Below, one piece after another: positions 1,492 to 30,076 of a DNA stretch of 43,027 nt. How positions within the stretch are numbered: the first letter of the stretch is position 1; each line of letters starts with the position of its first letter. The position numbers were made by a program, and so were the translations under genes. Source of the stretch: Candidatus Pacearchaeota archaeon (GTDB lineage Archaea; Nanobdellota; Nanobdellia; Pacearchaeales; GW2011-AR1); assembly GCA_030699205.1 (NCBI GenBank), contig JAUYJY010000058.1, positions 1 through 43,027 of the forward strand, read 5' to 3'. The notes beneath the pieces are model-generated. The model ran no database searches. It was not told the DNA's origin and saw nothing but the letters and a program-made list of their open reading frames with translations.

Positions 1492-1821
1492 AATTTGCAC
1501 CGCACCAAGTTTGCCAAAGTATATATTTAATATCATAAAATAACGCCAATAAATAATAAAGAGATTATTGCATAAACAAATTAAAATTGGCTTAATTTAA
1601 AAAACACCATCAATAAAAGTTTTAAAGTATCATACTTTATCGCCTATAAATTATTATTTGTTAATTAATTATAAAAATATTTCACACATTTCAGTTATAA
1701 AAACTATTTTTAAGCAATTTATCATCGGAAATCATCAAAAATCTATTTGCATTTAGATTATTTCCCTCGTTTTATCAAATATTAATTTATAAATTTTAGT
1801 TCATAAATACCCCAAATCACA

Positions 1822-3234
1822 TTAGAATAAATTAAGAAACCACTTAGCCATCATTAATACAACTAAAAGTAAAATAAACCACGTCACAATTGCATAGGCT
1901 TTCTTTCCTATTTTTTCTTTTCCAGTAATTCCCCATATTGTGATATAAAAGAATCTTCCCCCATCTAAAATTGATACGGGAAGCATATTCATCAAAGCAA
2001 CCAGTATGTTAATAACAATAATCCACCATAATAAATCATATATGAAGACTACAAAATCGCCGTCCCACGTTGCTTCATAATACACATTTGGCTGTTTTAC
2101 TTTAGAAAAGATAGAATAAATCTTCCCTGAAAATCCCCCTCTTTCTTGAGAATAAAATCCAACTCCTAAATAGGCTTTTCCATTTTTATCTCCAAGAATT
2201 ACATCGTACACTACTTCTCCCGAGCTTTGTATTGTAATAATCTTAACCTGTTCGTTCGGAGAATAATTTTCAAGAGCATTAATTAAGTCTTTGTGACTCT
2301 TAACTTCATAATCTCCTATCTTCTTAATTGCACCTTCTAACCTTGAATTTATTGCAGGAGAATTTTCAAAACCGACAATTTGCTCATTATTCAATAAAAC
2401 TTCTTCGGTAAGAAGCCCATTTGGAATCAAAACAATTTCTCCCGAATCCAGAGTAATTCTATTTAATCCTTCTTCTGCAAAACTTGGAATTTCTCCGATG
2501 GTTTCCAATGTAACATTTCCAATCATTGTGATACTTGAAACATTAACTATTGTTTGAGCATATGTGTTAAACTCAAGCCCTGCAGGTGCAAAGCTCAAGG
2601 CAAAAAAGCCCCACATAATTAATCCAAATAAAATTGTCATAACCATATTAGCAAATGTTCCGGCTCCTAAAATACTCAATTGTTTGAACTTTCCCGATTT
2701 TTCCATTTGTTTTTCATCAGGCTCTACAAAAGCTCCAAAGAAAGGTCCAAAAAATGCAAGACCTGTCGTTTTAACTTTAATCTTCCAGAGTCTTGCGAAA
2801 ATCCCGTGAGAAAATTCGTGAGAGACTGCAACAATCGCCAGAGCAATCAAGAAATATGTAAAATACAAAGGAGGAAATAAAGATTCTAAATTAAATATTT
2901 TAGGAAAATAAGGAATTAAAGGTGCTATTGGGGGAAGTCCTTGTAATTCTGTTGGTATTGGTTGAGTCACATAAACCCAAACAGTCTTAGTCAAAAGCCA
3001 CAAAATTCCCGCCATTAATGCATACCCTGAAGCAATAACCACATAACTCAACGGCTTCAATATTCTCTCAAACTTTTTAGCAGTCCATTCAATAAACTTT
3101 ATTCCTACCTTGCTGTGATATAAAAAAATCCACCCATGCCTCTTAACATTCTTTTTATTTCTATAAAAAAACCATCCTGCCAGAATCCCGAACAAAATCA
3201 GGAACACTATGTCATATACAAAAAAACTAACCAC
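1822..3234 (-). CDS. Site-2 protease (M50 family metalloprotease) with a PDZ-like insert
   Basis: HEFSHG (HExxH) lies in a TM segment and NMLPVSILDGG (NxxPxxxLDG) near the C-terminus. The protein is multi-TM. Confidence 0.85.
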   Translation of the reverse strand: MVSFFVYDIVFLILFGILAGWFFYRNKKNVKRHGWIFLYHSKVGIKFIEWTAKKFERILKPLSYVVIASGYALMAGILWLLTKTVWVYVTQPIPTELQGLPPIAPLIPYFPKIFNLESLFPPLYFTYFLIALAIVAVSHEFSHGIFARLWKIKVKTTGLAFFGPFFGAFVEPDEKQMEKSGKFKQLSILGAGTFANMVMTILFGLIMWGFFALSFAPAGLEFNTYAQTIVNVSSITMIGNVTLETIGEIPSFAEEGLNRITLDSGEIVLIPNGLLTEEVLLNNEQIVGFENSPAINSRLEGAIKKIGDYEVKSHKDLINALENYSPNEQVKIITIQSSGEVVYDVILGDKNGKAYLGVGFYSQERGGFSGKIYSIFSKVKQPNVYYEATWDGDFVVFIYDLLWWIIVINILVALMNMLPVSILDGGRFFYITIWGITGKEKIGKKAYAIVTWFILLLVVLMMAKWFLNLF

Positions 3235-3246
3235 TTTTTATACCCA

Positions 3247-3417
3247 TTATTTTTTCTTAGACTTTATCGGCCTAAAATTATGTTTACTGCATCTTCTGCA
3301 TTTTACCGTCCGTGCTATAACTTTTAACGAAGTTGTTTTCATCTTTTGTCCGCAGTTTTTACATACATAAACATTCTTAAAAAGTCTGTTTTGTGCCGCT
3401 GGTATTTTTGTTGCCAT
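3247..3417 (-). CDS. rpl40e: Ribosomal protein L40e (eL40), 56 aa, below the ORF-track cutoff
   Basis: Manual translation: MATKIPAAQNRLFKNVYVCKNCGQKMKTTSLKVIARTVKCRRCSKHNFRPIKSKKK. It has a CxxC...CxxC ribbon and a basic tail. The ATG directly abuts the aIF5A stop codon. Confidence 0.8.
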   Translation of the reverse strand: MATKIPAAQNRLFKNVYVCKNCGQKMKTTSLKVIARTVKCRRCSKHNFRPIKSKKK

Positions 3418-3807
3418 TTATAAAATCCTCATTATTAATTTTTCTCCCTCTATATCCCAATATTCTACTTGTTTTCCTTCCTCAATCTGGTTTCTTAATT
3501 CTTCTGCAAAAGACAGCTCAAGAGTTTCAAAACTTTCAAGGTCCATTACACTTACCTTATCGCCTGAAACGCCTAATACTTGGGCTTTTTTCTTCTCTAC
3601 CAATGGAACCTCTAATTTTTCATCTCCGGGAATAACTCCAATTCTTTTCTTATTATCAAATATGCCCACAACTTCCATTCTGCATTTGGTGTGTCCGTGC
3701 TTCCCTGTTTTGCTATGGTCGCTGGACTTTACAGTGCAAGCCACCCCTTCCCATAAAATAACTGTCCCCGATTTTGCAGTGGCAGCCGATATTAATTTTA
3801 AAACCAT
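3418..3807 (-). CDS. eif5a: Translation initiation factor 5A
   Basis: Hypusine loop SKTGKHGHTK; 129 aa with an OB-fold C-terminal half. Confidence 0.9.
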   Translation of the reverse strand: MVLKLISAATAKSGTVILWEGVACTVKSSDHSKTGKHGHTKCRMEVVGIFDNKKRIGVIPGDEKLEVPLVEKKKAQVLGVSGDKVSVMDLESFETLELSFAEELRNQIEEGKQVEYWDIEGEKLIMRIL

Positions 3808-3855
3808 ACCAAAAAGTTACAAGAAATATTTATAAAACCTTCTACTCGCATACTA

Positions 3856-4548
3856 ATGATGGAAAACACTGAAATAGTAAGAAAAAAGGATTTCATAGAA
3901 TTAAAATTTACGGGATATTCTAATGGAAATATATTTGATTCAAATATCCCCGAAGATTTAAAATCCCTTTCACCAGATGCAAAACCTGAAAAAACAATAG
4001 TTATCGTCGGGGAAAATATGATTGTTCCGGGATTTGACAAGGCATTGGAAGGAAAGGAATTAAACAAAGAGTATGAAATAGAAATTCCCTATTTAGATGG
4101 TTTTGGGCAAAGAAGAAGGGAATTAGTAAAAACTATTCCCCTAAACGTTTTCAGAAGCCAAAATATCAATCCGAAGCCCGGAGCCGCATTACTTTTAGAT
4201 AATCAGTTTGCAAGAGTAATCACAATATCCGGAGCAAGGGTAATAACCGATTTTAATAATCCTCTTTCAGGAAAAGATTTGAAATACAAATTTATCATAA
4301 CTCGAAAAGTAATTGATTTAAATGAAAAGTCAGAGGCATTCTTTCAATTCTTTTTAAGATTCAAACCAGATTTTGAAATTTCAGAAACAGCAGTGTTTGT
4401 AAAAGGTCCCCAAATATTTGAACAGATGATTAATTTGCAAAAAGAAAAATTCAAAGATTTAATAGGAAAAGATTTAGAGTTTAAACTTGAAGAAAAAAGA
4501 TCTGCACAGGAATCAAATAATGAATCTCCCGAAAACACTCCAAAATAG
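3856..4548 (+). CDS. FKBP-type peptidyl-prolyl cis-trans isomerase (long archaeal type)
   Basis: The ELKFTGYSNGNIFDSN and VPGFDKALEGK patterns are typical of FKBP/SlyD-like proteins. Confidence 0.75.
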   Translation: MMENTEIVRKKDFIELKFTGYSNGNIFDSNIPEDLKSLSPDAKPEKTIVIVGENMIVPGFDKALEGKELNKEYEIEIPYLDGFGQRRRELVKTIPLNVFRSQNINPKPGAALLLDNQFARVITISGARVITDFNNPLSGKDLKYKFIITRKVIDLNEKSEAFFQFFLRFKPDFEISETAVFVKGPQIFEQMINLQKEKFKDLIGKDLEFKLEEKRSAQESNNESPENTPK

Positions 4549-4615
4549 AACTACGTTTAATTACACTTCAGATTAGTATAATAATCCTTATAAAGAAATC
4601 TCATTTTCATATTAA

Positions 4616-5704
4616 ATGCCAGACATTACAATAGAATCGCACATAAACAATAACAGTTCTATAGACCAAGAATTAGAATCTTTATTGGAAAAACAATCTA
4701 CGAGAGTAAAGGTAATTGGTATTGGCGGGGGTGGAAATAATTCCGTTTCAAGGATGAAAGAAATAGGGATAAAAGGTTGCGAAGTAATCGCAGTAAATAC
4801 AGATGCACAGGATTTATTATATGCAAATGTTGATTCCAAAATACTTATTGGAAGAGAATTAACTGCAGGTCTTGGTGCAGGAAGCAATCCCAAAATCGGA
4901 GAAGAAGCGGCAAGAGAATCAGAACAGGAAATAAAGAAAAAATTATCAAATTCAGACCTCGTATTTGTAACCTGCGGGCTTGGAGGGGGTACCGGAACAG
5001 GTGCAATTTCAGTAATCGCAGATATTGCAAAAAAACAAGGGGCGTTAGTTATAGGAGTGGTTACTCTTCCATTTACTGTCGAAGGCCAAAAAAGAATAGA
5101 AAACGCCCAATATGGGCTGGAAACCCTAGAATCCATAGTGGATACTTTAATTGTCATACCAAATGATAAATTATTAGAATTAGCTCCCGAACTTCCAATA
5201 CAAACGGCTTTCAAGGTAGCAGATGAAATACTAACAAATTCGGTTAAGGGAATAGCGGAATTAATTACCTCTTCAGGATTAGTAAACTTAGACTTTGCAG
5301 ACGTAAAAGCAGTAATGTCAAACGGGGGAGTTTCTTTAATAGGCATAGGAGAATCAGACAGTTCTCAAAATAGGGCAATTGAAGCAGTAGAAAGGGCAAT
5401 TCACAATCCATTGCTTGATGTGAGTATAGATAAAGCAAAAGGGGCATTAGTAAATGTCATAGGCGGACCAGATATGTCTTTAGACGAATATAGAAAAGTA
5501 ATGGAGGAAATAAACAACAGAGTTGCTCCTGATGCAAAAATAATTTCAGGTGCAAAAATTTCCGCAGATATGGAAAAATCACTAAAAGTTTTATTGATAG
5601 TAACCGGGGTGCAAAGCTCACAAATCCTCGGCTCTTCGCAAAGGTTTACTAATAAGGAATCAACTATCGACGAAGAATTAGGAATAAGGTTTTTAAGAGA
5701 TTAA
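4616..5704 (+). CDS. ftsZ: Cell division GTPase FtsZ
   Basis: GIGGGGNN and the tubulin signature GLGGGTGTGA. Confidence 0.95.
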   Translation: MPDITIESHINNNSSIDQELESLLEKQSTRVKVIGIGGGGNNSVSRMKEIGIKGCEVIAVNTDAQDLLYANVDSKILIGRELTAGLGAGSNPKIGEEAARESEQEIKKKLSNSDLVFVTCGLGGGTGTGAISVIADIAKKQGALVIGVVTLPFTVEGQKRIENAQYGLETLESIVDTLIVIPNDKLLELAPELPIQTAFKVADEILTNSVKGIAELITSSGLVNLDFADVKAVMSNGGVSLIGIGESDSSQNRAIEAVERAIHNPLLDVSIDKAKGALVNVIGGPDMSLDEYRKVMEEINNRVAPDAKIISGAKISADMEKSLKVLLIVTGVQSSQILGSSQRFTNKESTIDEELGIRFLRD

Positions 5705-5825
5705 TAAGCCCACACAATTAATCGCAAAATCAAATAATCACATTATTTGTAAACTTAAAAAACTTAAACCTTCAATTAAAAAGCTCAATGAACAATTTTA
5801 AAAACTCTTCATTTCTTTAACATTC

Positions 5826-5993
5826 ATGGGAAAGCTAAAATCATTTATTGCACAATCTGTAAGAGTTTGGAGAATTTTAAAGAAGCCGACAAAACAAGAA
5901 TTCAGTTTAATCTCCAAAGTTTCGGCAATAGGAATTCTTGTCTTGGGCATTATAGGTTTTTTAATTTCATTAGTTGTGAAAGCTTTCAATTAA
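5826..5993 (+). CDS. secE: Preprotein translocase SecE/Sec61-gamma, 55 aa, below the ORF-track cutoff
   Basis: Manual translation: MGKLKSFIAQSVRVWRILKKPTKQEFSLISKVSAIGILVLGIIGFLISLVVKAFN. It has a single C-terminal TM and fits the conserved secE-spt5-rpl11 order. It supersedes the antisense ORF 5798-5989. Confidence 0.8.
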   Translation: MGKLKSFIAQSVRVWRILKKPTKQEFSLISKVSAIGILVLGIIGFLISLVVKAFN

Positions 5994-6074
5994 CGCCACA
6001 GAAACTTTTATAAACCATCCAAAACCCTTAAAACCACTACTTCTTTAATATCAAGAGGTAGTTGGAACTGAAAA

Positions 6075-6548
6075 ATGATATTTATTGTAAAAGTCACAAC
6101 AAATAAAGAAGAAAAAGCTCTTGAAATGATTTATGACAGAGCTATAAAAAAGAATCTTTCTGTTTATGCAATAGTAAGACCTCACGGATTAAAGGGTTAT
6201 ATTATCCTCGAGGCGGCAGACAGAGATTCTGCAGAAGAATCCTCTTTTAATCTTCCCTATGTGAAAGGCATAATCGGAAAAACGGTTTCATATGACGAAG
6301 TTAAAAATATACTTCAGCCAGAAGCAGAAGATTTTAATATAGAAGTAGGCGACATTGTCGAGATGATTGCAGACCACTTCAAAAATGAAAAAGGAAAAGT
6401 TATGAGAATTGACAAGAAGAAGGGAGAAGTTGTAGTTTCATTATTGGGTGCCGCAGTTCCAATTCCAGTAACTGTAAAAATGGATAATATAAGAGTTGTA
6501 AGAAGAGAAAAGGAAGAGGAAGAGGAGGAAGAAAATGCCTATAATTAA
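6075..6548 (+). CDS. spt5: Transcription elongation factor Spt5 (archaeal NusG)
   Basis: NGN-like N-terminal half and a KOW motif (GDIVEMIADHFKNEKGKVMRID). It sits upstream of rpl11 with a 14-nt overlap. Confidence 0.85.
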   Translation: MIFIVKVTTNKEEKALEMIYDRAIKKNLSVYAIVRPHGLKGYIILEAADRDSAEESSFNLPYVKGIIGKTVSYDEVKNILQPEAEDFNIEVGDIVEMIADHFKNEKGKVMRIDKKKGEVVVSLLGAAVPIPVTVKMDNIRVVRREKEEEEEEENAYN

Positions 6549-7230
6549 ACTGATTGTTGAAGGCGGAGCAATGAAGCCGGGACCAACAGTAGCACAGCAA
6601 CTTGGTCCAATGGGAGTCAATTTAGGAAAAGTTATAGAAGATGTAAATAAAGAAACGCAAGGATTCAAGGGAATGAAAGTTCCGGTAGAATTAGATGTTG
6701 ATAGTAAAACAAAAAATTACAAAATAAAAGTTTATTCGCCTCCGGTTTCAGAACTGATAAAAAAAGAATTAAAGATTGACAAAGGTTCGGGACGTCCGAG
6801 CGACACAAAAGCAGGGAATCTTTCAATTGAGCAGACAATATTAATTGCAAAAACAAAAATGCCTGGTATGCTTGCCAAAGATTTAAAGGCGGCAGTAAAG
6901 CTCGTCGCTGGCTCTTGTGTTTCTATTGGAGTCCTCATAGAAAGTAAAAGTCCTCAGGAAGTGATTGCAGAAATTAACTCTGGAAATTATGACTCTGAAA
7001 TTAATCAGGAAAAAACAGAAGTTTCTCAGGAAAAGAGAAAAGAACTTGATAATTACTTCAATGAGATAAAATCCAAACAAGAGGCATTAGCAAAAGCGGC
7101 TGAAGAAGCTAAAGCGGCTGAAGAAGCGGCAAAAGCAGAAGCAACGACAACGGTTGCGAAACCAGAAGAAAAGAAAGAAGAGAAGAAGGAAGAAAAGAAA
7201 CCAGAAAAGAAACCGGCGTCCAAGAAATAA
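6535..7230 (+). CDS. rpl11: Ribosomal protein L11 (uL11) with a ~70-aa Ala/Glu/Lys-rich C-terminal extension
   Basis: N-terminal IKLIVEGGAMKPGPTVAQQLGPMGVN is a typical L11 sequence. The tail reads AKAAEEAKAAEEAAKAEA...EEKKEEKKEEKKPEKK. Confidence 0.9.
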   Translation: MPIIKLIVEGGAMKPGPTVAQQLGPMGVNLGKVIEDVNKETQGFKGMKVPVELDVDSKTKNYKIKVYSPPVSELIKKELKIDKGSGRPSDTKAGNLSIEQTILIAKTKMPGMLAKDLKAAVKLVAGSCVSIGVLIESKSPQEVIAEINSGNYDSEINQEKTEVSQEKRKELDNYFNEIKSKQEALAKAAEEAKAAEEAAKAEATTTVAKPEEKKEEKKEEKKPEKKPASKK

Positions 7231-7261
7231 TTTAAATACCTTCATTTATCATTTTAAATAA

Positions 7262-7335
7262 GGGGCCGTAGTATAGTCTGGTTAGTATCCGAGGTTTGGG
7301 ACTTCGTGACCCCGGTTCAAATCCGGGCGGCCCCA
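7262..7335 (+). tRNA. tRNA-Pro (anticodon UGG)
   Basis: Cloverleaf folded by hand. Acceptor GGGGCCG/CGGCCCC, anticodon stem CGAGG/CUUCG, anticodon loop UUUGGGA, T arm CCCGG-UUCAAAU-CCGGG, discriminator A. 74 nt, with no intron and no encoded CCA. Confidence 0.9.
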
Positions 7336-7386
7336 TTTATATTAAATACCAAAATTTAAAAAGCATTATCCAAGTAATTAATTAAT

Positions 7387-7608
7387 ATGGCAGCAAAGAA
7401 AAAGAAAATAAAAGCATCAGGTCGTTTTGGTGCAGGATATGGAACAAGAGTCAGAAAGAAACTTAACGCTGTAGAAAGTTTGCAAAGAAAAAAACAAAAA
7501 TGTCCTTTCTGCACTAAATCAGGAGTCAAAAGACAAGCAGTCGGAATATGGAATTGCGAAAAATGCGGAAAAACATTTGCATCTAAAGCATATTCAATAA
7601 ACCCTTAA
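7387..7608 (+). CDS. rpl37ae: Ribosomal protein L37Ae (eL43)
   Basis: Basic N-terminus GRFGAGYGTRVRK and a CPFC...CEKCG zinc ribbon. Confidence 0.9.
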   Translation: MAAKKKKIKASGRFGAGYGTRVRKKLNAVESLQRKKQKCPFCTKSGVKRQAVGIWNCEKCGKTFASKAYSINP

Positions 7609-7637
7609 ACTTAAAAACCCACAAAACACAAATAATT

Positions 7638-7775
7638 ATGGCACAATATAAATGCTTCAAATGCGGGAAAACAACAACAAACAAAATACTTGAAAAGAGA
7701 TTTAATTGTCCTGCGTGCAATTCAAAAATTTTCTACAAGCCAAGAAAGCATATAGTAAAAATAAAGGCAATTTAA
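7638..7775 (+). CDS. rpoP: RNA polymerase subunit P (Rpo12), 45 aa, below the ORF-track cutoff
   Basis: Manual translation: MAQYKCFKCGKTTTNKILEKRFNCPACNSKIFYKPRKHIVKIKAI, with two CxxC pairs. The stop codon abuts the next ATG. Confidence 0.75.
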   Translation: MAQYKCFKCGKTTTNKILEKRFNCPACNSKIFYKPRKHIVKIKAI

Positions 7776-8129
7776 ATGGAATTAAATCAGGAATCACAGG
7801 AAAAACTGCAAGAGCTTCAGATTTTAGAGAACAACTTGCAGAATGTTTTAATGCAAAAACAAGCTTTCCAGATGGAATTAGGTGAAACTATCAATGCGTT
7901 AGAAGAAATTAAAAACACGAATGAATCCATCTATAAATTAGTCGGCACAATTATGATTAAAGCTGACAAAGAAAAAACTCTTGAAAGTTTGGGGGAAAAA
8001 AAGAGAATTCTTGAATTGAGAAATGAATCCTTAGACAAACAAGAAAGGCTTTTCGAAGCAAAAGCAAAAGAAATTCAGGGATTTCTTAGAAATGCAATAA
8101 ACGAGAAAAATATTGAAAAGAAAGAATAG
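7776..8129 (+). CDS. pfdB: Prefoldin beta subunit
   Basis: 117 aa with two coiled-coil arms flanking a central hairpin region. It sits after rpl37ae-rpoP, as in many archaea. Confidence 0.75.
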   Translation: MELNQESQEKLQELQILENNLQNVLMQKQAFQMELGETINALEEIKNTNESIYKLVGTIMIKADKEKTLESLGEKKRILELRNESLDKQERLFEAKAKEIQGFLRNAINEKNIEKKE

Positions 8130-8242
8130 GATTTATTAAAAATAATCAGATTAATTCAAAGAGATAACTTAATGCAGTTTTAACAAATACTTATATCCCA
8201 AAATACGATAATATTTATATACTAACCCGCTTAGTTCAAAGC

Positions 8243-8623
8243 ATGGCCTTCGATATAAAAAAGATGTTTGGTAAAAATGAAGTTTCAGAAGATTATGTAG
8301 AAATAGATTTAAACCAAGGACAGCAGAAAAAAGAAAAAATTAGAGTAAGACCATTTACTCTTAAAAAATATGACGATGTTAACGAGGTTCTTGAGGCACT
8401 AAGAGAAGGATATTCCATTGCAGTAATCGATATCAGACCCTTAAAATCAAAAGACATTATTGAATTAAAAAGAGCAATCACCAAGATAAAGAAAACCGTA
8501 GATGCTTTAGAAGGTTCAATTGCAGGTTTCGGAGACCATTCAATTATAGCAACTCCTGAATTCGCAGAAGTTTATAAAGCTCCCGCAAAACCACAAAAAA
8601 AAGACGATTTAAGCTTTTATTAA
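8243..8623 (+). CDS. sepF: SepF-like cell division protein
   Basis: 126 aa. The central IRVRPFTLKKYDDVNEVLEALREGYSIAVIDI...AITKIKKTVDALEGSIAGFGD resembles the SepF/DUF552 core. ftsZ lies 2.5 kb upstream. Confidence 0.7.
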   Translation: MAFDIKKMFGKNEVSEDYVEIDLNQGQQKKEKIRVRPFTLKKYDDVNEVLEALREGYSIAVIDIRPLKSKDIIELKRAITKIKKTVDALEGSIAGFGDHSIIATPEFAEVYKAPAKPQKKDDLSFY

Positions 8624-9078
8624 TTTATTAAAAACGCAAGCGATTGCGTGAAATATAAACCAATTTTTAATTTTAGGATGTTATGTTCCAAATGCTTTCA
8701 ATGTGTTTTTAAATCGTGTGTAAATGTGTAATTCTGTAAGTTATTATCTCAAATTACCCAATTAAGTTGTCCGCCCACTATTAATAAAATATTTAGCAAT
8801 TAATGATTTAACTAACCAACTTTTTGATAATTGCCTGCGATATATTTTTAAAAATCTGTCCTGCAAGATAAAATTCTAACCTTTATTATATCCGCGGTTA
8901 ATTAATCAATCTTTAAAGGTGATAAAATATAATATCTTGAAAGTATTATTAATGTTAATATTTGAATAAAATCAATTTTAGTTCGTATTTTCCCTAATCT
9001 CTGAATATTTCAGCAACTTTCCCCCATTCAAATAATTTCTATCAAACTAACAATTTCAATTTAAACTTCTCTATAATT

Positions 9079-9456
9079 TTAACTCTGGCTAATAGAAAAC
9101 AAACTTTTTATTGCAACTACAATTGTTGCAGGAACTAACAACACCAATAATGCCCCGAGTGTAGAACTCACCAAATCTCCCACATCAAGTCCAATAATTT
9201 CTGCATCTTTCAATCCCTGCAATCCTTCAAGACCCGCAAAACTAACAATAACTAACGAAACCGCCGCAAACAAAAATGTATTAACGTCCTTTGAAGAAAC
9301 ATTAACAAATCCAACAATCAATCCAAGCACAACTAAAATTCCAGAAATCACAGGACTCAACACTCCAAAACTTAAAAGACCAACCCCCAAAGCAAGAATA
9401 ACGCCGACGAGAAATGCCCAAGCACCAAGCAAGTTTTCTTTAGATCTAATGGCCAT
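9079..9456 (-). CDS. Small integral membrane protein (about 4 TM), unknown function
   Basis: 125-aa ORF that is almost entirely hydrophobic, Gly/Val/Leu-rich helices. Confidence 0.6.
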   Translation of the reverse strand: MAIRSKENLLGAWAFLVGVILALGVGLLSFGVLSPVISGILVVLGLIVGFVNVSSKDVNTFLFAAVSLVIVSFAGLEGLQGLKDAEIIGLDVGDLVSSTLGALLVLLVPATIVVAIKSLFSISQS

Positions 9457-9569
9457 TTGTCCTCAATAAAAAGAGCAAATCATATATATAAATTTTGTGC
9501 AAGCACGCAAAGTTCGTTTAAACCGAAACATTTAAATATGTGTGTAATCAAAAAGTTACAACGAAAAAA

Positions 9570-11531
9570 ATGAGCACTCAAAAAAAAATCTTTGGCCTCC
9601 TAGGACTTTTCACATTACTTGTTGTTTCCTTAATTGGATTTGTTAGCGCAGCAAGCTTAACTATATTTAATCAAATTATTCCATCAAATATAAGTCAGAG
9701 TGCAACATCATTTCAAATTACTTTTGATTTAAAAAACACGGGATTAACAGCGGCAAACCTTAGTTGGAATGGTTCAATGCTGACATCTGGAATAGGTTCA
9801 ATAGACACATCTCAATTGCCTCTTTTCATAGGGAACGGAACACAATCAGTCCCAACAACACTATCAAATCAAATTGTAACCGTTAATATTAACGCTCTAC
9901 AAACAGGAAATATTGCAGGTATAATTGAGGTAGATCCAAGCGGGAGTGGTGATAATAGGAATTTTAGTTTTTCAGTTCCAATAATAACCCCCCAATCCCC
10001 TCTACAAATAACCACCCCCACAACAGAAATATTAGCAGGACAAAACACATCAATAATAGTAACAAACACAGGAAGCACAACCTTACCTGTAATACTTTCT
10101 GAAGTGAGCAATTTCGGTATTGTCTTCAATCCCCAAACATTTTCTCTTGCAGGTTCTGCACAGCAAACCATTAATGTAATAATGGATGCGTTAAACACAT
10201 TTAATTTTGGATTTAATAACGTCGTCGTCAAAGCAACATCCGGAACAATAACAACAGAAGAAACCTTCCAGGTTAAGAAATCCTTCTGTGATTTCGGACA
10301 GGTTGGAACAAATCTTTCTATAAGTAAAATAGATGTTCAAAACAATGGAAACGGAGAAGACCATAAATGGGAGTTGCTAGACGAAATAGAAGTTGAAGTT
10401 GAAGTTGAAAATCACAATCAAGATGATGATTTAGATGTTGTAATTGAGCTCGCATTATTTGATTCTGCGGGAAGAAATATTGCAGATGATTTAAACTACT
10501 TATCCGACTCCGATGGGGATGAAGAGAAAATTGAGTTAAATATTAACGATGGAGATGAAGAAAAGAGATTCTTCAGATTTAGAGTTCCTGCTGACTTTGA
10601 TGACGGCAATTATAAACTCGCAGTAAAAGTTTATAATGATGAAGATGGAGAAGACGTAGATTGCAGAGAAACAAGCGGAAATGATTTGAACAGAGGATTT
10701 TATCAGGAAATTGATATAGATAGAATAACAGAAAAAGATAGAATGGTTATTGTGGACGACATAGAAATAGATTCTCAAGCATCCTGCGGCGATATAGTAA
10801 CTGGAGAATTTACCGTCTTTAATATCGGAAACAGAGACCAGGACAGAGTAAAGGTTTTGATGAGAAACACGGCATTAAATTTAGACCAGGAATTTGAAAT
10901 TACTAATTTAGACGAAGGAGAAGAAGAAACAATTCAATTTAGATTTAATGTCCCCCTAAATACTGCAAATGGAAACCATAGGATAGATTTCAGAACGCTT
11001 TATGAATATGACGATGGAATTTATGAAGAAGAATCAGAAGATACATTTATTACAACGTTGGAAATTCTTGGATGCACAGGAACAACTACTCTTGGAGACA
11101 ATCCTTCAGGAAGTGCATTAATCACAGCGGCATTAACTTCAAGTGCTAAAGCAGGTCAGGAAATGACAGTTGATGCAACAATCACAAACATCGGCACAGA
11201 AACAGCAGTATATAGTGTAAGCGTCACAGGATTTTCAAATTGGGCTTCACTTTCCTCAATTTCAGAACCTTCATTTACTCTAAATCCCGGACAAAGCAAG
11301 ACAGTCGCGTTTGCATTTAATATAAACAAAGATTCAAAAGGCACACAGATTTTCACAATCCAAACAACTTCTGGAGATAAAATAGAAACCCAAGAAGTAG
11401 AAATTAATATTGAATCTTCTAAATTTGAATTTAGTTTTAGTGATAATACATGGATATGGATAATTGCAGCAATCAACATAATCCTAATAGTTTTGATTAT
11501 TGTAGTCGCAGTAAGACTCTCCAGAAGATAA
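9570..11531 (+). CDS. Secreted surface protein (653 aa) with an acidic central region and a C-terminal TM plus basic tail
   Basis: Signal peptide MSTQKKIFGLLGLFTLLVVSLIGFVSAAS and D/E-rich repeats. The C-terminus is WIWIIAAINIILIVLIIVVAVRLSRR. The start was taken at ATG 9570 rather than GTG 9540. Confidence 0.7.
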   Translation: MSTQKKIFGLLGLFTLLVVSLIGFVSAASLTIFNQIIPSNISQSATSFQITFDLKNTGLTAANLSWNGSMLTSGIGSIDTSQLPLFIGNGTQSVPTTLSNQIVTVNINALQTGNIAGIIEVDPSGSGDNRNFSFSVPIITPQSPLQITTPTTEILAGQNTSIIVTNTGSTTLPVILSEVSNFGIVFNPQTFSLAGSAQQTINVIMDALNTFNFGFNNVVVKATSGTITTEETFQVKKSFCDFGQVGTNLSISKIDVQNNGNGEDHKWELLDEIEVEVEVENHNQDDDLDVVIELALFDSAGRNIADDLNYLSDSDGDEEKIELNINDGDEEKRFFRFRVPADFDDGNYKLAVKVYNDEDGEDVDCRETSGNDLNRGFYQEIDIDRITEKDRMVIVDDIEIDSQASCGDIVTGEFTVFNIGNRDQDRVKVLMRNTALNLDQEFEITNLDEGEEETIQFRFNVPLNTANGNHRIDFRTLYEYDDGIYEEESEDTFITTLEILGCTGTTTLGDNPSGSALITAALTSSAKAGQEMTVDATITNIGTETAVYSVSVTGFSNWASLSSISEPSFTLNPGQSKTVAFAFNINKDSKGTQIFTIQTTSGDKIETQEVEINIESSKFEFSFSDNTWIWIIAAINIILIVLIIVVAVRLSRR

Positions 11532-11781: not shown

Positions 11782-11875
11782 TATAGTCTAAGACATTTAT
11801 AATTGAGCAGTATTTGTCTTAGACTATTAGCGGAAGAACAAAAAACTGTTCAAAATATTTTGTCTTCTGCTATAT
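11782..11875 (+). mobile_element. R-type MITE-like repeat, copy R2
   Basis: tatagtctaagaca-(19 nt)-tgtcttagacta-tt-agcggaagaacaaaa-(loop)-ttttgtcttctgctatat. This is near-identical to R3, R4, R5 and R7. Confidence 0.85.
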
Positions 11876-11939
11876 CTCACTCCGGAATAATCTCGTTGAA
11901 TAAAAGAACATTTTTAACCTCTTTTATATTTGTTAATAA

Positions 11940-12494
11940 ATGAATAAAAAGACAATCAACTCTGTTTTCTTTAGATATATTCTTCTCGTTGTTTTGGGTA
12001 TTCCTAATTTATTTATTTTTTATTTCATATTAACCCCCTTAACTTTCTATCCCTCATATTTCTTCATAAAATTAATCTATGGTGCCCAAATTATTGCAGA
12101 AAACACAATATTCTTTAAAGGATATTCTGCAATAATAATCCCTGCCTGCATTGCAGGCTCTGCATATTATCTTCTTACAATATTAAACTTAACAACCCCC
12201 TTAAATTTTAAAACCCGCATTAAGAGTCTAATTTTTTTAATCTTATCTTTTTTAATTCTAAATATAATCAGAATTGTTTTTTTCTCCGCACTCTTTGTAA
12301 ATAAAGGATATGACTACTTCAATGTTACTCATATAGCGACTTGGTATTTCGGAAGCACAATATTAGTTATTTTAATATGGTTTGCAAACGTTTTCATATT
12401 TAAAATAAAATCAATTCCAGTATATTCCGATTTTAAGAACCTATCAAATAGTTTATTAAACAAACATTCTAAAAAATATATGGAGAAAAAGTAA
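11940..12494 (+). CDS. Exosortase/archaeosortase-family membrane protein (pacearchaeosortase-like)
   Basis: 184 aa, polytopic. It has an ordered Cys (IIPACIAGS), Arg (LNIIRIVFF) and His (NVTHIATW), matching the order of the family catalytic residues. Confidence 0.55.
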   Translation: MNKKTINSVFFRYILLVVLGIPNLFIFYFILTPLTFYPSYFFIKLIYGAQIIAENTIFFKGYSAIIIPACIAGSAYYLLTILNLTTPLNFKTRIKSLIFLILSFLILNIIRIVFFSALFVNKGYDYFNVTHIATWYFGSTILVILIWFANVFIFKIKSIPVYSDFKNLSNSLLNKHSKKYMEKK

Positions 12495-13160
12495 ATGTAT
12501 AATTTAATCCCTCAAATAATTGAATCCCTCGTTAGTTTAATTGGCTCATTAGGGTATTTCGGAATTTTCATCGGGATGTTAATAGAAAGCTCTTTTTTTC
12601 CTTTTCCAAGCGAAATAATTCTTCCTCCTGCAGGAGTTTTAATCGCCAGAGGAGATTTATCCCTTTCAATTGTATTTTTAATTGCCATAGCGGGCAGTCT
12701 TGCAGGTGCTTTTATAAATTATTTCATCGCCCTTCATCTTGGAAGAAGAGTCATTAATAGATTAATGAATAAATATGGAAAAATATTATTCCTAAACTCA
12801 GAACATTTAGATAAATCAGAAAAGTATTTCAAAAAGCATGGCGAAATAACAACATTCACCGGCAGATTAATCCCAGGAGTAAGGCAAATAATCTCCCTTC
12901 CAGCAGGATTTGCAAAAATGAATCTTTTTAGGTTTTCAATATTCACGATGATTGGCTCAGGAATATGGTCAATAATCCTAATTTACATTGGAATTGCATA
13001 CGGAAACAATCAAGAAGCAATAAAACCCCTCCTAAATTCAATAACTCTAATTGTTTTGTTTATTCTATTAATAATAGTTATTTCCTATATAATTATAATG
13101 AAGAAAAAAAAGCAAAACAGCAGAGATAAAACATCTCCTCAGATATCCATTACACTTTAA
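12495..13160 (+). CDS. dedA: DedA/VTT-domain membrane protein
   Basis: LIESSFFPFPSEIILPPAG and TGRLIPGVRQIISLPAG motifs. The ATG immediately follows the stop of the upstream gene. Confidence 0.8.
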   Translation: MYNLIPQIIESLVSLIGSLGYFGIFIGMLIESSFFPFPSEIILPPAGVLIARGDLSLSIVFLIAIAGSLAGAFINYFIALHLGRRVINRLMNKYGKILFLNSEHLDKSEKYFKKHGEITTFTGRLIPGVRQIISLPAGFAKMNLFRFSIFTMIGSGIWSIILIYIGIAYGNNQEAIKPLLNSITLIVLFILLIIVISYIIIMKKKKQNSRDKTSPQISITL

Positions 13161-13326
13161 ACAAATGTTACTTTATCTGTCTGCCTTTCCACATCTGACT
13201 TTCTTTGAATTACTCTATGTATTCCTCCATTGCTGAGTTGTAGATTTCTTTAATAAACAATTAGTGATTAGTGGAAAACAGACAAAAACTCTCACACCAA
13301 CCCAATATTATTAAAACATATAATTA

Positions 13327-13420
13327 ATATAGCAGAAGACAAAATATTTTGAACAGTTTTTTGTTCTTCCGCTAATAGTCTAAGACAAATACTGTTCAAT
13401 TATAAATGTCTTAGACTATA
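13327..13420 (-). mobile_element. R-type MITE-like repeat, copy R3 (inverted relative to R2 and R4)
   Basis: Its reverse complement is identical, by eye, to copy R4. Confidence 0.85.
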
Positions 13421-13564
13421 GAAGTTATTGTTAAAGGGTTTTGATACAAGTCATGTTTAGGTGATTTGGTATTTGATTTATTGGGTGATATTCATAATTA
13501 AACCCTAACCCACAATATTCATCAACAAAATTAAAATCATTTAATGTTACATAAAAAATCAACT

Positions 13565-14230
13565 TTATGTATTTGCCTGTGTTGCATCTACAACTATCTG
13601 CAATTCAAGTCTTTCCACAGCTTCTAAAATCTGACAGCTTGAAACCTGTATTTTATAACATTTTCCATTCAAGTCTATTCTTGTCTCGTTTCCCTCGGAT
13701 ATTTCAATTACAATGTTTCCAGGTCTGTTCTCGCAAGTAACCCATTCTTGTCGTTTATATCCTGCATCCCAGAAATTAAGATTTCCCCCCAAAACACTAA
13801 GTTGATTATCACTCAAAAAACTCGATAGGCTTGCAATTGCTAAAGGTCCCTGTTTGCACTGATCAATGCCTTTAGGGTCTACGGAAATAAACACAGCACT
13901 CTTTCTATCAAATGCAGTTCCTTCTCCCTCAATGGGGATTTTATCCAATTCCCTTGGATCATTTCTCAAATAAAAATTATATTTTATAAGCTTCCCATCC
14001 AATCCTTTCAGAAAATAAAAATGGTGAAATATTGGGATATTTCCAAGTTTCTCCTCTGTAAATTTAACTCCATTATACTCAAAATTATTTAAGCTCTTGA
14101 AAAAAACCCCTGCGATAACAAACACAACTGCTAAAAAAACTATAAACAATAAAATTCCTAAAAGTTCCTTCTCAAGCTTTCTTTCTTTCGCAGGCTTCTT
14201 CTCCACTTTTTTTACTTTATTTTTAATCAT
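13565..14230 (-). CDS. N-terminally anchored extracytoplasmic protein, unknown function
   Basis: 221-aa ORF with a Lys-rich N-terminus, one TM (LLGILLFIVFLAVVFVIAGVFF) and a Cys-containing soluble domain. Confidence 0.6.
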   Translation of the reverse strand: MIKNKVKKVEKKPAKERKLEKELLGILLFIVFLAVVFVIAGVFFKSLNNFEYNGVKFTEEKLGNIPIFHHFYFLKGLDGKLIKYNFYLRNDPRELDKIPIEGEGTAFDRKSAVFISVDPKGIDQCKQGPLAIASLSSFLSDNQLSVLGGNLNFWDAGYKRQEWVTCENRPGNIVIEISEGNETRIDLNGKCYKIQVSSCQILEAVERLELQIVVDATQANT

Positions 14231-14266
14231 TTTAATAAAATCTATTAATTTCCTTAGTTTTTAAAA

Positions 14267-14812
14267 TTAATTGAAGCCCAAAACCTTATACAAAAATGCA
14301 TCAACTATTCTTAAATCTCCCTCTATAAATATGCAATTTTCATTTTGAGTAACTTTATTCATCCCTGAGTCCCTCCATATAATCATATTTTCTTCACAAG
14401 TTTTTTCAGGTAAATCTCTCTCGCACTCCCCATAACACGCTTCCTGAATTCTTCCCGCAAACCTGCCTAAATTATTTGCCAATTCTGTTAAAACCGCAGA
14501 ATTTTCCGCATCAATATACAAATTCTTTCCGGAATAACTAGACAAACTCTTTGTAAAATTCAAATCACCCATTTCGGTCTCGCCTATGCTGTAAGTAAAA
14601 TAATAATTTTGCCCCCCAAATGGGTAAATCCAATATTGCCCGTCATAATATGGCTCTTCCCCGTTTTCCTGCCCTGCATTTCCCTCCGAAAGCCCGTTTA
14701 AAGCAAAACCCGCAGTGCTAAAAACCAACAAAGCTATCAAAATAATTCCCACAATAAGCTTCTTTTTCTTTTCAGATTTTTCAATTTCATCAGGACTTTT
14801 TAATCTTCTCAT
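14267..14812 (-). CDS. N-terminally anchored extracytoplasmic protein, unknown function
   Basis: 181-aa ORF with one TM (LIVGIILIALLVFSTAGFAL) and a soluble domain containing 4 Cys. Confidence 0.6.
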   Translation of the reverse strand: MRRLKSPDEIEKSEKKKKLIVGIILIALLVFSTAGFALNGLSEGNAGQENGEEPYYDGQYWIYPFGGQNYYFTYSIGETEMGDLNFTKSLSSYSGKNLYIDAENSAVLTELANNLGRFAGRIQEACYGECERDLPEKTCEENMIIWRDSGMNKVTQNENCIFIEGDLRIVDAFLYKVLGFN

Positions 14813-14940
14813 TCAAATATATGCAATTCTCAATTTAAAAATGTTTTTCATAACCTTAGAGATTAGTTTAAGGATAACTAACACATTTAATTTTAATATG
14901 CATCCAATAGACAATAAAAACTTACATCTTTCAATGTTAT

Positions 14941-14983
14941 GCTATAGGCAAGGCATTTAATTTCCGTATAGTTATGCCTTGAA
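14941..14983. repeat. H-type hairpin with a conserved loop, copy H1
   Basis: gctatag-gc-AAGGCAT-ttaatttccgtatagtt-ATGCCTT. The second copy at 41009 has the same loop core (taatttccgtata) but different, still complementary, stems. Confidence 0.5.
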
Positions 14984-15076
14984 TATAGTCTAAGACATTT
15001 ATAATTGAACAGTATTTGTCTTAGACTATTAGCGGAAGAACAAAAAACTGTTCAAAATATTTTGTCTTCTGCTATA
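14984..15076 (+). mobile_element. R-type MITE-like repeat, copy R4
   Basis: Full two-hairpin element flanked by TA. Confidence 0.85.
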
Positions 15077-24395: not shown

Positions 24396-26492
24396 CTATA
24401 CAATATTAGTCGCCGAAGCAGTTAAACTGCATTGGTTTGGTGCAGGTTGATTTCCAAACTCGTCAGCACATTTTATATAATAAACAATATTGGGTTTCCA
24501 TTCAGCATAACTTGTTGTTTTTTCAGTCGCGGGATTATGTATCATCTTTATTCCCTCGTCAATATTAAAGTTACAGCTGTTTAATGAATAAGTGCATTCG
24601 GCAGGCTCATTCGTAACTATCTTTAAAGTATCCAAAAAATGATATGCCCTTGCAACCATTGGTTCTGTAACATCTACAAATACATTAAAGCTCGTGGAAT
24701 CTTCCGCACTATTCCCTCCCGCATCTATACATCTAAAGAAATAGTTATAATCTCCTGAGATTAATGTTAAAACTTGCCGATGTTCAAATCCCCCCGAATC
24801 AAACATCGCAACATAACTCCCTTCTTCTCCAGAATCAGAAAAATAACAAACTGCTTCTCCTTCCTTTGCCCCGTCATCCGTCTTCACATATAATTCAATT
24901 TCAACAACTTCTGTGCTTCCAGTTATTGTTTCATTAGGAGCAACGGAAAGAATGCTCAATGGTTGACTTCCAAGCAAATTGAGATTATAACTTCCCACAT
25001 TAACATTTCTCTCATTATCTGGCTTTTTAGGCTGGTCCTTGCATCTAAAATAATAATTATTCTCTTGTCTGTCAACTATTCCAGTGAGAGTAGTAGAACA
25101 AGTATAAAGCTCTCTTGCATTTATTTCAGTTAATTTTGTTGCACATTGCATTTCTTGTTCCATTTCCTCATACGCCTTGTCTTGAACACTCCATTTACAT
25201 TCCGAAGGTTCATTTACATAAATTTCCATCGGGGTTTCCCCTGAATTATATGAAATATAACTTCCCGATTTAATGGAAGTATCAACAATTATCGGCGGAG
25301 TTGTATCCGGACTTGGGTCCACACAAAATTGGAAGTCAAACTCTCCCACATTCTCATTCCCATTTTTATCCCTGCATCTAACAAATAGATTATATCTCCC
25401 ATCATTCTGTAATTCAGGAGCTTCTGAATTTATCGCATCAGGCGACGGCAAACTCATTACCTGTGTATGATTATATAAATAAAAGTTGCTTTTTCCAAAG
25501 AAGAAACTCATTTCATCCAATGTATCTTTATGAACTATATCTATTTTACATTGTGCTGGTTCATTAGTGGTTATTCCAAAGCTTAATGGTGTAAACGCCT
25601 GCAAACACCCGTTACTCACATCTTCCCTAACAATTTTAGCTCCCAAACTTGGAGGCCTCGTATCATGATTAGTGTATTTATGCTTTTCCGTTAATGGCTC
25701 CTGCCAAGGTGTTATAGTCGGAGGACTTGCATCATTTGGATTCACCCAAGCACATTTTTCTTCAGTAGTTCCGGAATTTACAATCTCACATGCTTGCCCT
25801 AAAGCCCTGCACCTATATTCAGAGCAAGGCCTAAATGGGTCTGCGTTGCATTTCTCACAATCCCCTCCGCCGACAGGAGCTTCAAAAGGAAGACATTGAA
25901 AATCAACCCTGACTTCCTTTTCAGATTTATATAATAAAATAAATACAACAACACCGACCGTAATTCCGATAATTGGTCCTGCAACTCCCTGAGTCAATCC
26001 ATCAATCCCAAATAATGTATCTTTAGCAGCACTACCAATCAAATTAGAAGAAAAAAATCCCGCAAAAGTTCCAACACCCGCCGCAGTGCTTAAAGCATCA
26101 GCCACATTTTTATCAACCCCAAATAAAGTCGTCAATAACTTAACCCCCATATACACAGAAAGCCCCCAAACAGCCCCCTGCATCAACGCACTCGGAATTT
26201 TCCCCGGCGTCGCACCAAACGCTTCTCCAGAATATAACTTCCCGAAGAAACCTGATTCTGTTGGGTTTGGAGTTGTTCCTGCCTCTCTTCCAGCCTGCCA
26301 AGCTTTATCCCTTCCGAGTAATTTATCGAATAAACTCCAAGTAGGTTCTCCTCCTTCTTCCTGCCCGCTAACCCTCTGCGTTTCCCCAATCAAAAACGCA
26401 AACGAAACAACAGAAAAAACTATAAGAAATATTTGCGTAAAAACCAACGTCGTCCCAACTTTATACGGGGGAAACTTTCCTCTCTTTTGCAT
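24396..26492 (-). CDS. 698-aa membrane/surface protein. It has an N-terminal anchor, a Gly-rich membrane region, a Cys-knot-like segment and Ig-like repeats, and is a paralogue of the C-terminal part of the 1333-aa protein.
   Basis: VDFQCLPFEAPVGGGDCEKCNADPFRPCSEYRCRALGQACEIVNSG aligns with VDFSCLPWQPPSGGQSCEECDSDDLGCSEYKCNSLGQNCELLNEG in ORF 33463-37464. The NEPSECKWS and NEPAECTYS repeat markers are shared. Confidence 0.75.
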   Translation of the reverse strand: MQKRGKFPPYKVGTTLVFTQIFLIVFSVVSFAFLIGETQRVSGQEEGGEPTWSLFDKLLGRDKAWQAGREAGTTPNPTESGFFGKLYSGEAFGATPGKIPSALMQGAVWGLSVYMGVKLLTTLFGVDKNVADALSTAAGVGTFAGFFSSNLIGSAAKDTLFGIDGLTQGVAGPIIGITVGVVVFILLYKSEKEVRVDFQCLPFEAPVGGGDCEKCNADPFRPCSEYRCRALGQACEIVNSGTTEEKCAWVNPNDASPPTITPWQEPLTEKHKYTNHDTRPPSLGAKIVREDVSNGCLQAFTPLSFGITTNEPAQCKIDIVHKDTLDEMSFFFGKSNFYLYNHTQVMSLPSPDAINSEAPELQNDGRYNLFVRCRDKNGNENVGEFDFQFCVDPSPDTTPPIIVDTSIKSGSYISYNSGETPMEIYVNEPSECKWSVQDKAYEEMEQEMQCATKLTEINARELYTCSTTLTGIVDRQENNYYFRCKDQPKKPDNERNVNVGSYNLNLLGSQPLSILSVAPNETITGSTEVVEIELYVKTDDGAKEGEAVCYFSDSGEEGSYVAMFDSGGFEHRQVLTLISGDYNYFFRCIDAGGNSAEDSTSFNVFVDVTEPMVARAYHFLDTLKIVTNEPAECTYSLNSCNFNIDEGIKMIHNPATEKTTSYAEWKPNIVYYIKCADEFGNQPAPNQCSLTASATNIV

Positions 26493-26530
26493 ATAAAAGA
26501 TAACAACTTATTGTTTATAAATATTAGTAG
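26386..26530 (-). repeat. F0: 5' end (first ~35 codons), start codon and TATA-box region of the 698-aa gene. This is the master copy of the F direct repeat.
   Basis: ccaatcaaaaacgcaaacgaaacaacag...ctttcctctcttttgcatataaaagataacaacttattgtttataaatattagtag recurs at 27344, 29235 and 30081. Confidence 0.8.
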
Positions 26531-26692
26531 ATTGCTTTCAAAATTTCAATTGTCTTTCCCAGAAACAACTTCAAAATTTAACCTTGCTAATCTCCTTCTA
26601 TTACTTGTCCAGCTTGCAGTATATTTTCCAATGGATAACTTTATACCACTATTTTGATTATACACTCCTCCAACTCCCCTTGATTATTCCAC

Positions 26693-27309: not shown

Positions 27310-27343
27310 AAAAATAAGTATCTTAATTGATATATAAAATTAT

Positions 27344-27510
27344 CCAATCAAAAAAAACTAAACACAGAAAAAACTATCAAGAATATTTGCCCAAAGACTA
27401 AATTATTAATTTATACAGTATCTCCGATGAGTTTTCTTAAGGGAACTTTGAATAATCAACCTTTCCTTCAAAGTTCTCTTAACTCTAAGATTTATCTTAT
27501 AAATCTTACA
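27344..27510 (-). repeat. F1: degenerate copy of the F repeat
   Basis: ccaatcaaaaaaaactaaacacagaaaaaactatcaagaatatttgcccaaagactaaatta aligns with F3. The distal part is decayed, with a ~40-nt insertion, and there is no ATG. Confidence 0.5.
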
Positions 27511-29219: not shown

Positions 29220-29234
29220 AAATCACAATCAAAA

Positions 29235-30071: not shown

Positions 30072-30076
30072 ATTTT

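Follow-up and report, generated by a model that had tools for sequence, protein, structure and literature searches.

The 43,027-nt contig JAUYJY010000058.1 of the Candidatus Pacearchaeota archaeon assembly GCA_030699205.1, analysed here over its full length as a single window, carries a short, dispersed double-hairpin repeat, the R family, which is very likely a miniature inverted-repeat transposable element (MITE) of the IS630 type in DPANN archaea. The window, with a G+C content of 28-40%, encodes FtsZ, SepF, Spt5, L11, aIF5A, prefoldin, PCNA, an S-layer-like protein and HEPN/MNT pairs. The closest relatives of its FtsZ, at 77-81% identity, come from metagenome-assembled genomes (MAGs) of Pacearchaeota and other DPANN archaea, and the host is a Pacearchaeota-like DPANN archaeon. 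Using direct-repeat and pattern searches together with alignment, we located in the window five near-identical full copies of 93 nt, each running from TATAG to CTATA, a divergent copy of 95 nt and a truncated copy; 0 matches to the copy patterns were expected from shuffled-sequence controls. The positions are as follows.

1-27, + strand: positions 50-76 of a copy of subfamily A that is truncated at the start of the window and is identical to the canonical copy up to AAAATA.
28-118, + strand: 91-nt element from a second double-hairpin family (TGGACAATTCTG...CAGAATTATCTA), nested between TA at 26-27 and TA at 119-120.
121-137, + strand: positions 77-93 (TTTTGTCTTCTGCTATA) of the interrupted subfamily-A copy.
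11782-11874, + strand: full 93-nt subfamily-A copy between the open reading frames (ORFs) 9540-11531 and 11940-12494, scoring 91.9 bits.
13328-13420, - strand: full 93-nt subfamily-A copy, inverted, between the 3' ends of two convergent genes.
14984-15076, + strand: full 93-nt subfamily-A copy, with an empty single-TA allele in a related strain (run X2).
27624-27716, + strand: full subfamily-A copy of 93 nt, distinguished by G52A and by private changes in loop 1 and flanked by divergent genes (an MNT/HepT pair and an ATPase_2/DUF234 gene).
29114-29208, + strand: 95-nt copy of subfamily B (stems GTGCAACAAC/GTTGTTGCAC, inner end blocks TTCGGTT/AACCGAA), scoring 96.7 bits and beginning 6 nt past the stop codon of ORF 27786-29108.
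30824-30916, + strand: full 93-nt subfamily-A copy.

Within a copy, TATAG is followed by a 13-bp stem with a 19-nt loop and by CTAT, then directly by TAGCGGAAGAACAAAA, a 14-nt loop and TTTTGTCTTCTGCTATA. A preliminary description of this DNA had recorded the same layout of two adjacent hairpins, with loops TTGAACAGT and ACTGTTCAA and inverted-repeat ends, and all of these parts were recovered; its copy positions agree with ours to within 1 nt, the copies being 93 nt long. The divergent copy that it placed at 29114-29219 does start there, but ends at 29208 and belongs to the other subfamily, in which the stem is changed on both arms with pairing retained. The half copy that it placed at 1-138 does contain element positions 50-93 (1-27 and 121-137), with the addition that it is interrupted by the nested 91-nt element. 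As it had also proposed, the window copies all lie between ORFs, and the 93-nt element contains no ORF. The copies from 11782 to 15076, in the order +, -, +, bracket the two-gene blocks 11940-13160 and 13565-14812, like composite units.

The family extends far beyond the window. Since a pattern of the exact hairpin 1 had no match in species-representative genomes, among which the source species is thus absent, we used a looser pattern with only the ends and the junction fixed, TATAGN{34,44}CTATTAGCRGAN{28,40}CTGCTATA, which recovers all six full copies of the window. This pattern found 80 further loci, 12 in MAGs of Woese-, Pace- and Nanoarchaeota and 68 in metagenome contigs, mostly from groundwater, and no copies in viral contigs. 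A covariance model built from 61 distinct copies revealed additional, more diverged double-hairpin families within the same loci, which are given L numbers below. The window itself is present in two groundwater runs, of which X1 is the main one. In X1, the summed contig depth is 1,600-10,800 at element positions, compared with ~22 for unique sequence, and more than 180 contigs end in an element (contigs that fit more than one element copy within a 5-kb stretch). The source metagenome thus holds roughly 10^2 copy-equivalents, a number that is an upper bound for this one genome. These depths and contig ends explain why the window begins inside a copy, as the preliminary description had supposed in attributing its start to an assembly break at a multi-copy repeat, and its estimate of seven or more loci is far exceeded. 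Longer relatives of 151 nt occur in L164 (374-524), L184 (692-842), L180 (6626-6776), L220 (521-671) and L229 (from 6915); these variants form four hairpins, with two extra short ones between hairpin 1 and hairpin 2. A solo right end in L108 is an 18-nt remnant. A published census of MITEs lists a Woesearchaeal genome with 105 MITEs per Mb, the elements themselves not being described (PMC11602168).

Seven comparisons of filled and empty sites at related loci, a test that the preliminary description had recommended, show insertion polymorphism: the empty site has a single TA, and the filled site has TA on either side of the element. In the first copy of the window, the TA at 26-27, which lies in loop 2, is the target of the nested insertion. 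The canonical loop (AAAATATTTTG) is the empty site of the nested 91-nt element, and the change is from AAAA-TA-TTTT to AAAA-TA-[TGG...CTA]-TA-TTTT; relatives of this nested element are found in L142, L097/L130 and L103. At the 14984 site, the empty allele of run X2 reads CCTTGA-C-TA-GATAGG and the window reads CCTTGA-A-TA-[TAG...CTA]-TA-GATAGG, while a loose end at 14982 joins CCTTGA to CTAGATAGGAATGG. When the two flanks of every copy were joined and searched among the fetched loci, five further filled/empty pairs were obtained, every empty site having one TA. L148 and L149, related contigs of one metagenome, differ reciprocally, each with an element inserted at a TA where the other is empty, which is a recent presence/absence polymorphism. 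The element is mobile, and the element proper, TAG...CTA (89 nt), inserts at TA and duplicates it to give TA/TAG...CTA/TA, in line with the earlier proposal of TA targeting. Beyond the TA, the flanks are weakly palindromic, with T at -6 and A at +6, and A at -2 and T at +2. The orientation of copies with respect to neighbouring genes is near random, both for the upstream gene (26 same, 37 opposite) and for the downstream gene (28 same, 36 opposite).

This insertion behaviour bears on a reading in which the repeat is a hairpin doublet like the REPINs (REP doublets forming hairpins) or BIMEs (bacterial interspersed mosaic elements), or a palindrome-associated transposable element (PATE) of the IS200/IS605 type, moved as single-stranded DNA by a single-tyrosine (Y1) HUH enzyme, either a REP-associated tyrosine transposase (RAYT) or TnpA, that recognises hairpins with TAG/CTA feet. 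One orientation is common to six of the seven window copies, as strand-specific movement of this kind might leave it; nevertheless, the TA on both sides of every filled site, the one TA of every empty site, the palindromic target preference and the lack of bias in gene-relative orientation all argue against Y1 movement.

The fold of the element is its most unusual property. Folding programs for RNA and DNA, whose use the preliminary description had suggested, predicted two adjacent hairpins on both strands; the z-scores against shuffled sequences were -5 to -7. In an alignment of 61 sequences, paired cells make up 99.0% of hairpin 1 and 96.5% of hairpin 2, and double-sided (compensatory) changes occur in 13 of the 24 stem pairs; these counts of pairing and change treat copies that are not phylogenetically independent, and the invariance of TATAG, CTATTAGCRGA and CTGCTATA in the alignment was imposed by the search pattern. 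When the pattern-fixed pair is left out, the local stems contain 19 G.U against 3 A.C combinations. Near the foot of hairpin 2, at a position partly fixed by the pattern, a non-Watson-Crick pair is kept in 50 of the 61 copies. The two hairpins arise because the outer 13 nt of each MITE end recur internally in inverted form, which folds the end back on itself. This fold-back architecture recurs in at least three divergent families, of the TAGCRGA type, the AAGGGAAAG type and the GGACAATTCTG type, and also in the four-hairpin variants, and it is conserved via compensatory changes in several divergent subfamilies.

For the Y1 reading, the adjacent hairpins with conserved feet, the strong covariation, the conserved non-Watson-Crick pair and an excess of G.U over A.C that suggests folding of one strand are all points in favour. 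Very stable folds, compensatory stem changes and a one-strand G.U excess would equally suit a structured non-coding RNA gene family, or cis-acting RNA or DNA signals such as terminators or mRNA stabilisers, in which the hairpins are the product and dispersal is secondary; copies also often lie within a few bases of gene ends. However, a search of Rfam 15 gave no match at the gathering threshold and, up to an E of 10, nothing beyond tRNAs and chance hairpin matches. The copies lack a conserved promoter, and their orientation relative to genes is near random. A promoter or terminator role was also rejected, the distances to start codons being scattered over 20-1047 nt and the TATA-like loop sequence varying between subfamilies. 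The presence/absence polymorphism with target duplication shows spread by transposition, and covariation among subfamilies is then a reflection of constraint on transposing master copies and not of local function. The element sequence does not occur in any public RNA run searched. As the primary nature of the family, the structured RNA that the preliminary description had offered as an alternative is therefore very improbable, given the lack of an Rfam match and of orientation bias and the clear insertion polymorphism.

The preliminary description had also proposed that the complementary loops let the element fold either as two kissing hairpins or as one long hairpin, and neither fold stood up. 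The loop-loop helix is paired in 82.7% of cells, compared with 32-49% when the partner is slid, and all 8 of its pairs show double changes; by subfamily, the loop pairs are TTGAACAG/CTGTTCAA, TTCGGTT/AACCGAA and GGAACTTTT/AAAAGTTCC. Nevertheless, G.U and A.C combinations are about equally frequent in these pairs (29 and 27), so that there is no wobble excess, and kissing loops were rejected on this ground in favour of a bipartite repeat. The single long hairpin has systematic mismatches (columns 7/98, 8/97, 49/59 and 50/58) and a stem pairing of just 70-85%, and is thus less conserved than the two local hairpins. The complementary loops are more simply explained as the inner blocks, one at each end, of a bipartite terminal repeat, since the left end and the reverse complement of the right end match at positions 1-5 (100%), 9-13 (85-100%) and 22-27 (70-90%) but diverge at positions 6-8 (11-18% identical). 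The ends are a bipartite, imperfect terminal inverted repeat of ~28 bp, TATAG-nnn-AAGAC-n8-TTGAAC, in which the terminal TAG precedes two blocks, the outer one at 9-13 (AAGAC in subfamily A) and the inner one at 22-27 (TTGAAC), with an A/T-rich spacer between them. Three subfamilies are distinguished by their outer and inner blocks, AAGAC/TTGAAC, ACCAAY/TTCGGT and ATTCAY/GGAACTTT. Covariation of the loops without wobble bias is as expected for two double-stranded sites read by one protein.

A further observation on the palindromes comes from a single insertion site upstream of the AAA_14/DUF4143 ATPase gene family, where the loop of hairpin 1 is inverted in some copies (L131 2486-2579 and 4311-4404; L150 5056-5149) relative to others (L101 2316-2409; L108 10107-10200). 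This inversion in situ is a flip of the kind made by template switching at palindromes. It shows a palindrome active as DNA, as the Y1 reading would have it, and at an otherwise identical site it is also the signature of a process in which the pairing of the stems is not selected at all but is kept mutationally, by intrastrand template switching (quasi-palindrome correction), in a MITE that happens to bear palindromes. However, the recurrence of the fold-back in at least three divergent families and the persistence of the uncorrected pair in hairpin 2 speak against that process, which would in any case account for the upkeep of the palindrome and not for its origin; as the explanation of the double hairpin, we consider it improbable.

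The link to a transposase was obtained from the ends. The positions shared by them, used as a pattern (TATAGNNNAAGACNNNNNNNNTTGARCA), matched MAGs of Pace-, Woese-, Nano-, Micr-, Aenigmat- and Iainarchaeota, along with some chance bacterial sequences. In L225, from Micrarchaeota UBA10161, and in L243, the motif bounds a 1104-bp insertion sequence (IS) with ends TATAGTTAAAGACATAAATATTTGAACA and TATAGTGCAAGACTTATAAATTTGAAC, in which no hairpin follows the motif. Two overlapping ORFs of the L225 IS match the helix-turn-helix (HTH) families HTH_23/29/32/33 and DDE_3, which is the IS630 architecture; there is an A8 run where ORF1 and ORF2 overlap, and the frame shifts again near the PELNPEE motif. 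The same IS end is found at the end of contig L204, from a Woesearchaeota MAG, where the last 29 transposase residues also match, and at four contig ends of the Micrarchaeota MAG H43-bin164_1, which in addition contains a MITE-like element. Homologues of the transposase protein lie mostly on contigs of ~1.1 kb, as multi-copy insertion sequences behave. Three ISs found by protein alone, L244 (1071 bp), L246 (1116 bp) and L245, start with TATAG and have TTGAAC or GGAAC at 22-27. In an ungapped alignment, the MITE ends and the IS ends (L225/L243, L244, L246, L245 and L204) fall in the same register, with TATAG at 1-5, an AAGAC-like block at 9-13 and TTGAAC at 22-27 in common. The search for a full-length IS with matching terminal repeats, advised in the preliminary description, thus yielded partners of 1.07-1.12 kb from DPANN metagenome assemblies, with a two-frame HTH and DDE_3 transposase and the same motif spacing. 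These IS630-type ISs lack internal inverted copies of the outer 13 nt, an absence that would suit a palindrome maintained by template switching. Contig ends in L171, L189, L216 and L230 show a further end type, TATAGTAAAAGACATAAATAATTGAGCAAAATTTATATA..., leading into non-hairpin A/T-rich sequence of which at most 140 nt of interior is present; these ends may belong to an autonomous, low-G+C IS that shares the terminal repeat and resides in Woese- or Nanoarchaeota.

The match to IS630-type ends is a further argument against movement by a Y1 enzyme, and so is the way in which the hairpins abut the ends directly, leaving no single-stranded cleavage site and guide sequence of the kind found in IS608. 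When ~1 Mb of loci was searched by tblastn with a Y1 probe, the only match was one unrelated IS200, in L151. Membership of the IS200/IS605 PATEs was rejected on account of the symmetric ends (TATAG/CTATA), flanks in which nothing but TA is conserved, a palindromic target preference and unbiased orientation; among the properties of a REPIN/RAYT system, the hairpin doublet with compensatory changes alone was found, TA being duplicated and no RAYT having been detected. Taken together, mobilisation by a Y1 enzyme is highly unlikely. L151 is of interest in its own right: at 10121-10528 and 12556-13647 it carries an IS200-type Y1 gene with CCCTAAAGGG hairpins of its own and a reverse-transcriptase-like ORF (YVDD) that begins beside a MITE copy.

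The R family thus has the features of an IS630/Tc1-mariner MITE: it duplicates TA, its terminal repeats match those of an IS, and it is small, non-coding and multi-copy (seven copies in 43 kb). This is the reading that the preliminary description had reached in calling it a non-autonomous MITE with IS630/Tc1-type targeting, and the TA duplication, the matching IS ends and the lack of a transposase in the window bear it out. An IS630/Tc1-mariner-type DDE transposase would mobilise the MITE in trans; its two HTH motifs would bind the outer and inner end blocks, as for ISY100 and Tc3, and it would then cut and paste the 93-nt element. For ISY100, a member of the IS630 family, ~30 bp per end suffices, binding is by two HTH motifs and an AT-hook, and TA is duplicated (PMC2170065). 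The layout of block, A/T-rich spacer and block at the R-family ends appears compatible with binding of the ISY100 kind.

Several points weigh against this reading. None of the 40 window ORFs scanned has a transposase domain, as had been noted before, and no transposase adjoins any of the ~90 copies examined. The 620 neighbouring ORFs, when clustered, comprise ordinary genes only (radical SAM, TrmB, RsmB, AAA_14/DUF4143, Na/H exchanger); TATAG...CTATA pairs 0.3-4 kb apart in the first 160 loci are MITE pairs only; and tblastn of the loci with a Mos1 probe returned nothing. An IS of the L225 type is absent at the DNA level from the contigs of source metagenome X1, in which matches were to the terminal repeat alone, and a search of related loci with the read-through transposase recovered only L225 itself. 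The full-length ISs lie in G+C-richer contigs, probably of Micrarchaeota and not of a Pacearchaeon, and the sole hint of a transposase in the same genome comes from MAG H43-bin164_1, in which IS ends occur together with a MITE-like element. The 16 positions common to the MITE and the L225 IS made up the search pattern, which leaves the second L225 end and the copies retrieved by protein search as the only independent support. A 2-nt duplication is, in addition, formally indistinguishable from a target TA plus an element that ends in TA. Finally, the local stems (99% and 96.5% paired) are better conserved than the identity of the left and right ends (~85%), and together with their G.U excess (19 against 3) this hints at a single-stranded form outside the simple model.

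The cut-and-paste DDE mechanism, as known in textbook form for Tc1/IS630 elements, needs no hairpins. The fold-back may provide extra transposase-binding sites, may supply a single-stranded hairpin needed at some step of mobilisation, or may be kept by template switching. Because the stems exceed the ends in conservation, the G.U excess falls on one strand and at least three families have the fold-back, a stronger version can be put forward, in which the double hairpin is a required part of transposition, either as a four-site synaptic architecture or as an obligatory one-strand hairpin of single-stranded DNA or RNA; we regard it as rather unlikely. Either form, confined to these DPANN MITEs, would add to IS630/Tc1-type mobilisation a variant not described so far. 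The R family is, in sum, a new family with an unusual architecture within a well-known kind of element.

Other MITEs of the IS630 family include SM1 of Sulfolobus and the cyanobacterial Nezha. RUP of Streptococcus pneumoniae, which goes with IS630-Spn1, belongs to the same class (PMC2229807). Like these, the R-family element is ~100 nt long, non-coding, intergenic and multi-copy, duplicates TA and has terminal repeats that match an IS630-type IS with an HTH and DDE transposase. Unlike them, it resides in DPANN archaea, its ends are folded back into two adjacent hairpins in place of one long stem, and its partner IS comes from related assemblies and not from the same genome.

The termini of the Correia elements, or NEMIS, TATAG[CT]GGATTAACAAAAA..., resemble TATAGCAGAAGACAAAA and the inner TAT-TAGCGGAAGAACAAAAAA of the R-family element (PMC2649163). 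Both kinds of element duplicate TA, and the Correia elements, at ~105-155 bp and with more than 100 copies, fall into length classes of ~100 and ~150 nt, like the 93-nt copies and the 151-nt four-hairpin variants described here. To our knowledge, no transposase is known for them. The Correia elements differ in being bacterial, in having a single pair of 26-bp terminal repeats that forms one long stem, and in an IHF site in the long form. Beyond the termini there is no sequence homology, and the resemblance may be due to chance in A/T-rich sequence. Membership of the Neisseria family (26-bp TATAG[CT]GGATTAAC...) was rejected, only the first 9 nt (TATAGCRGA) and an A-rich run being common and the host being a DPANN archaeon; the earlier statement that Correia elements begin with TATAG is thus right as to the termini and is a lead only, not an assignment.

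REPINs and BIMEs share with the R family an inverted hairpin doublet of ~90-100 nt, compensatory evolution, an intergenic location and hundreds of copies; they differ in lacking target duplication and in their dependence on a single-copy Y1 RAYT flanked by REPs. Short palindromic repeats dispersed in a small, A/T-rich archaeal genome are also represented by MJRE1-3 of Methanocaldococcus jannaschii (Suyama et al. 2005, cited in PMC2229807). These are reportedly mostly extragenic and present in more than 100 copies; the likeness is one of description, and we know of no TA duplication or IS partner reported for them. The CIR repeats of Caulobacter and Brucella are similarly small and intergenic, with TA termini and with each half forming its own stem-loop ('two arms'), but have no terminal inverted repeat, no demonstrated duplication, a GANTC methylation motif and an unrelated sequence (PMC2229807).

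Several further features surround the copies in the window. Three MITE copies are interspersed among two HEPN/MNT pairs of the toxin-antitoxin type (26693-27309 and 29353-30071; HepT-like or HEPN plus nucleotidyltransferase) and an ATPase_2/DUF234 gene, and this region is a variable accessory stretch. A segment of ~150 nt is repeated 3-5 times in the window (26381-26531, 29220-29357 and 30076-30214; more weakly 27335-27401 and 37386-37452). At 26472-26531 it spans the start codon (MQKRGKF...) and the upstream region of a gene for a 698-aa Big_13 surface protein; other copies adjoin the HEPN/MNT modules without a long ORF, resembling remnants of paralogous 5' ends, and one directly abuts the MITE at 29114-29208. 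The intergenic segment 15843-16000 (ggggcaacctcctcagttatacgccccgacgactgaaaggaggagagcacagcgtggtcggagcgaagc) is a conserved or multi-copy sequence, given its contig depth of 640 in run X1, compared with ~22 for unique sequence, and its presence at 28-89 in unrelated sediment metagenomes; it had no Rfam match at E up to 1. Just upstream of the copy at 11782, the segment 11585-11710 is also repeated in the metagenomes, with a depth of 100-190 in runs X1 and X5, and its minus strand may encode a small ORF that contains Cys.

At ~1 Mb, the genomes of DPANN archaea rank among the smallest of cellular life. With roughly a hundred copies at the depth of the source genome and polymorphism between co-occurring strains, the R family is an active shaper of the variable regions of such a genome and a practical cause of broken assemblies, and its elements could serve as strain markers in groundwater DPANN populations. 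The link to an IS630-type IS gives a testable pair of transposase and substrate in an uncultured lineage, and the conserved fold-back offers a tangible starting point for understanding how a MITE comes to parasitise a transposase well.

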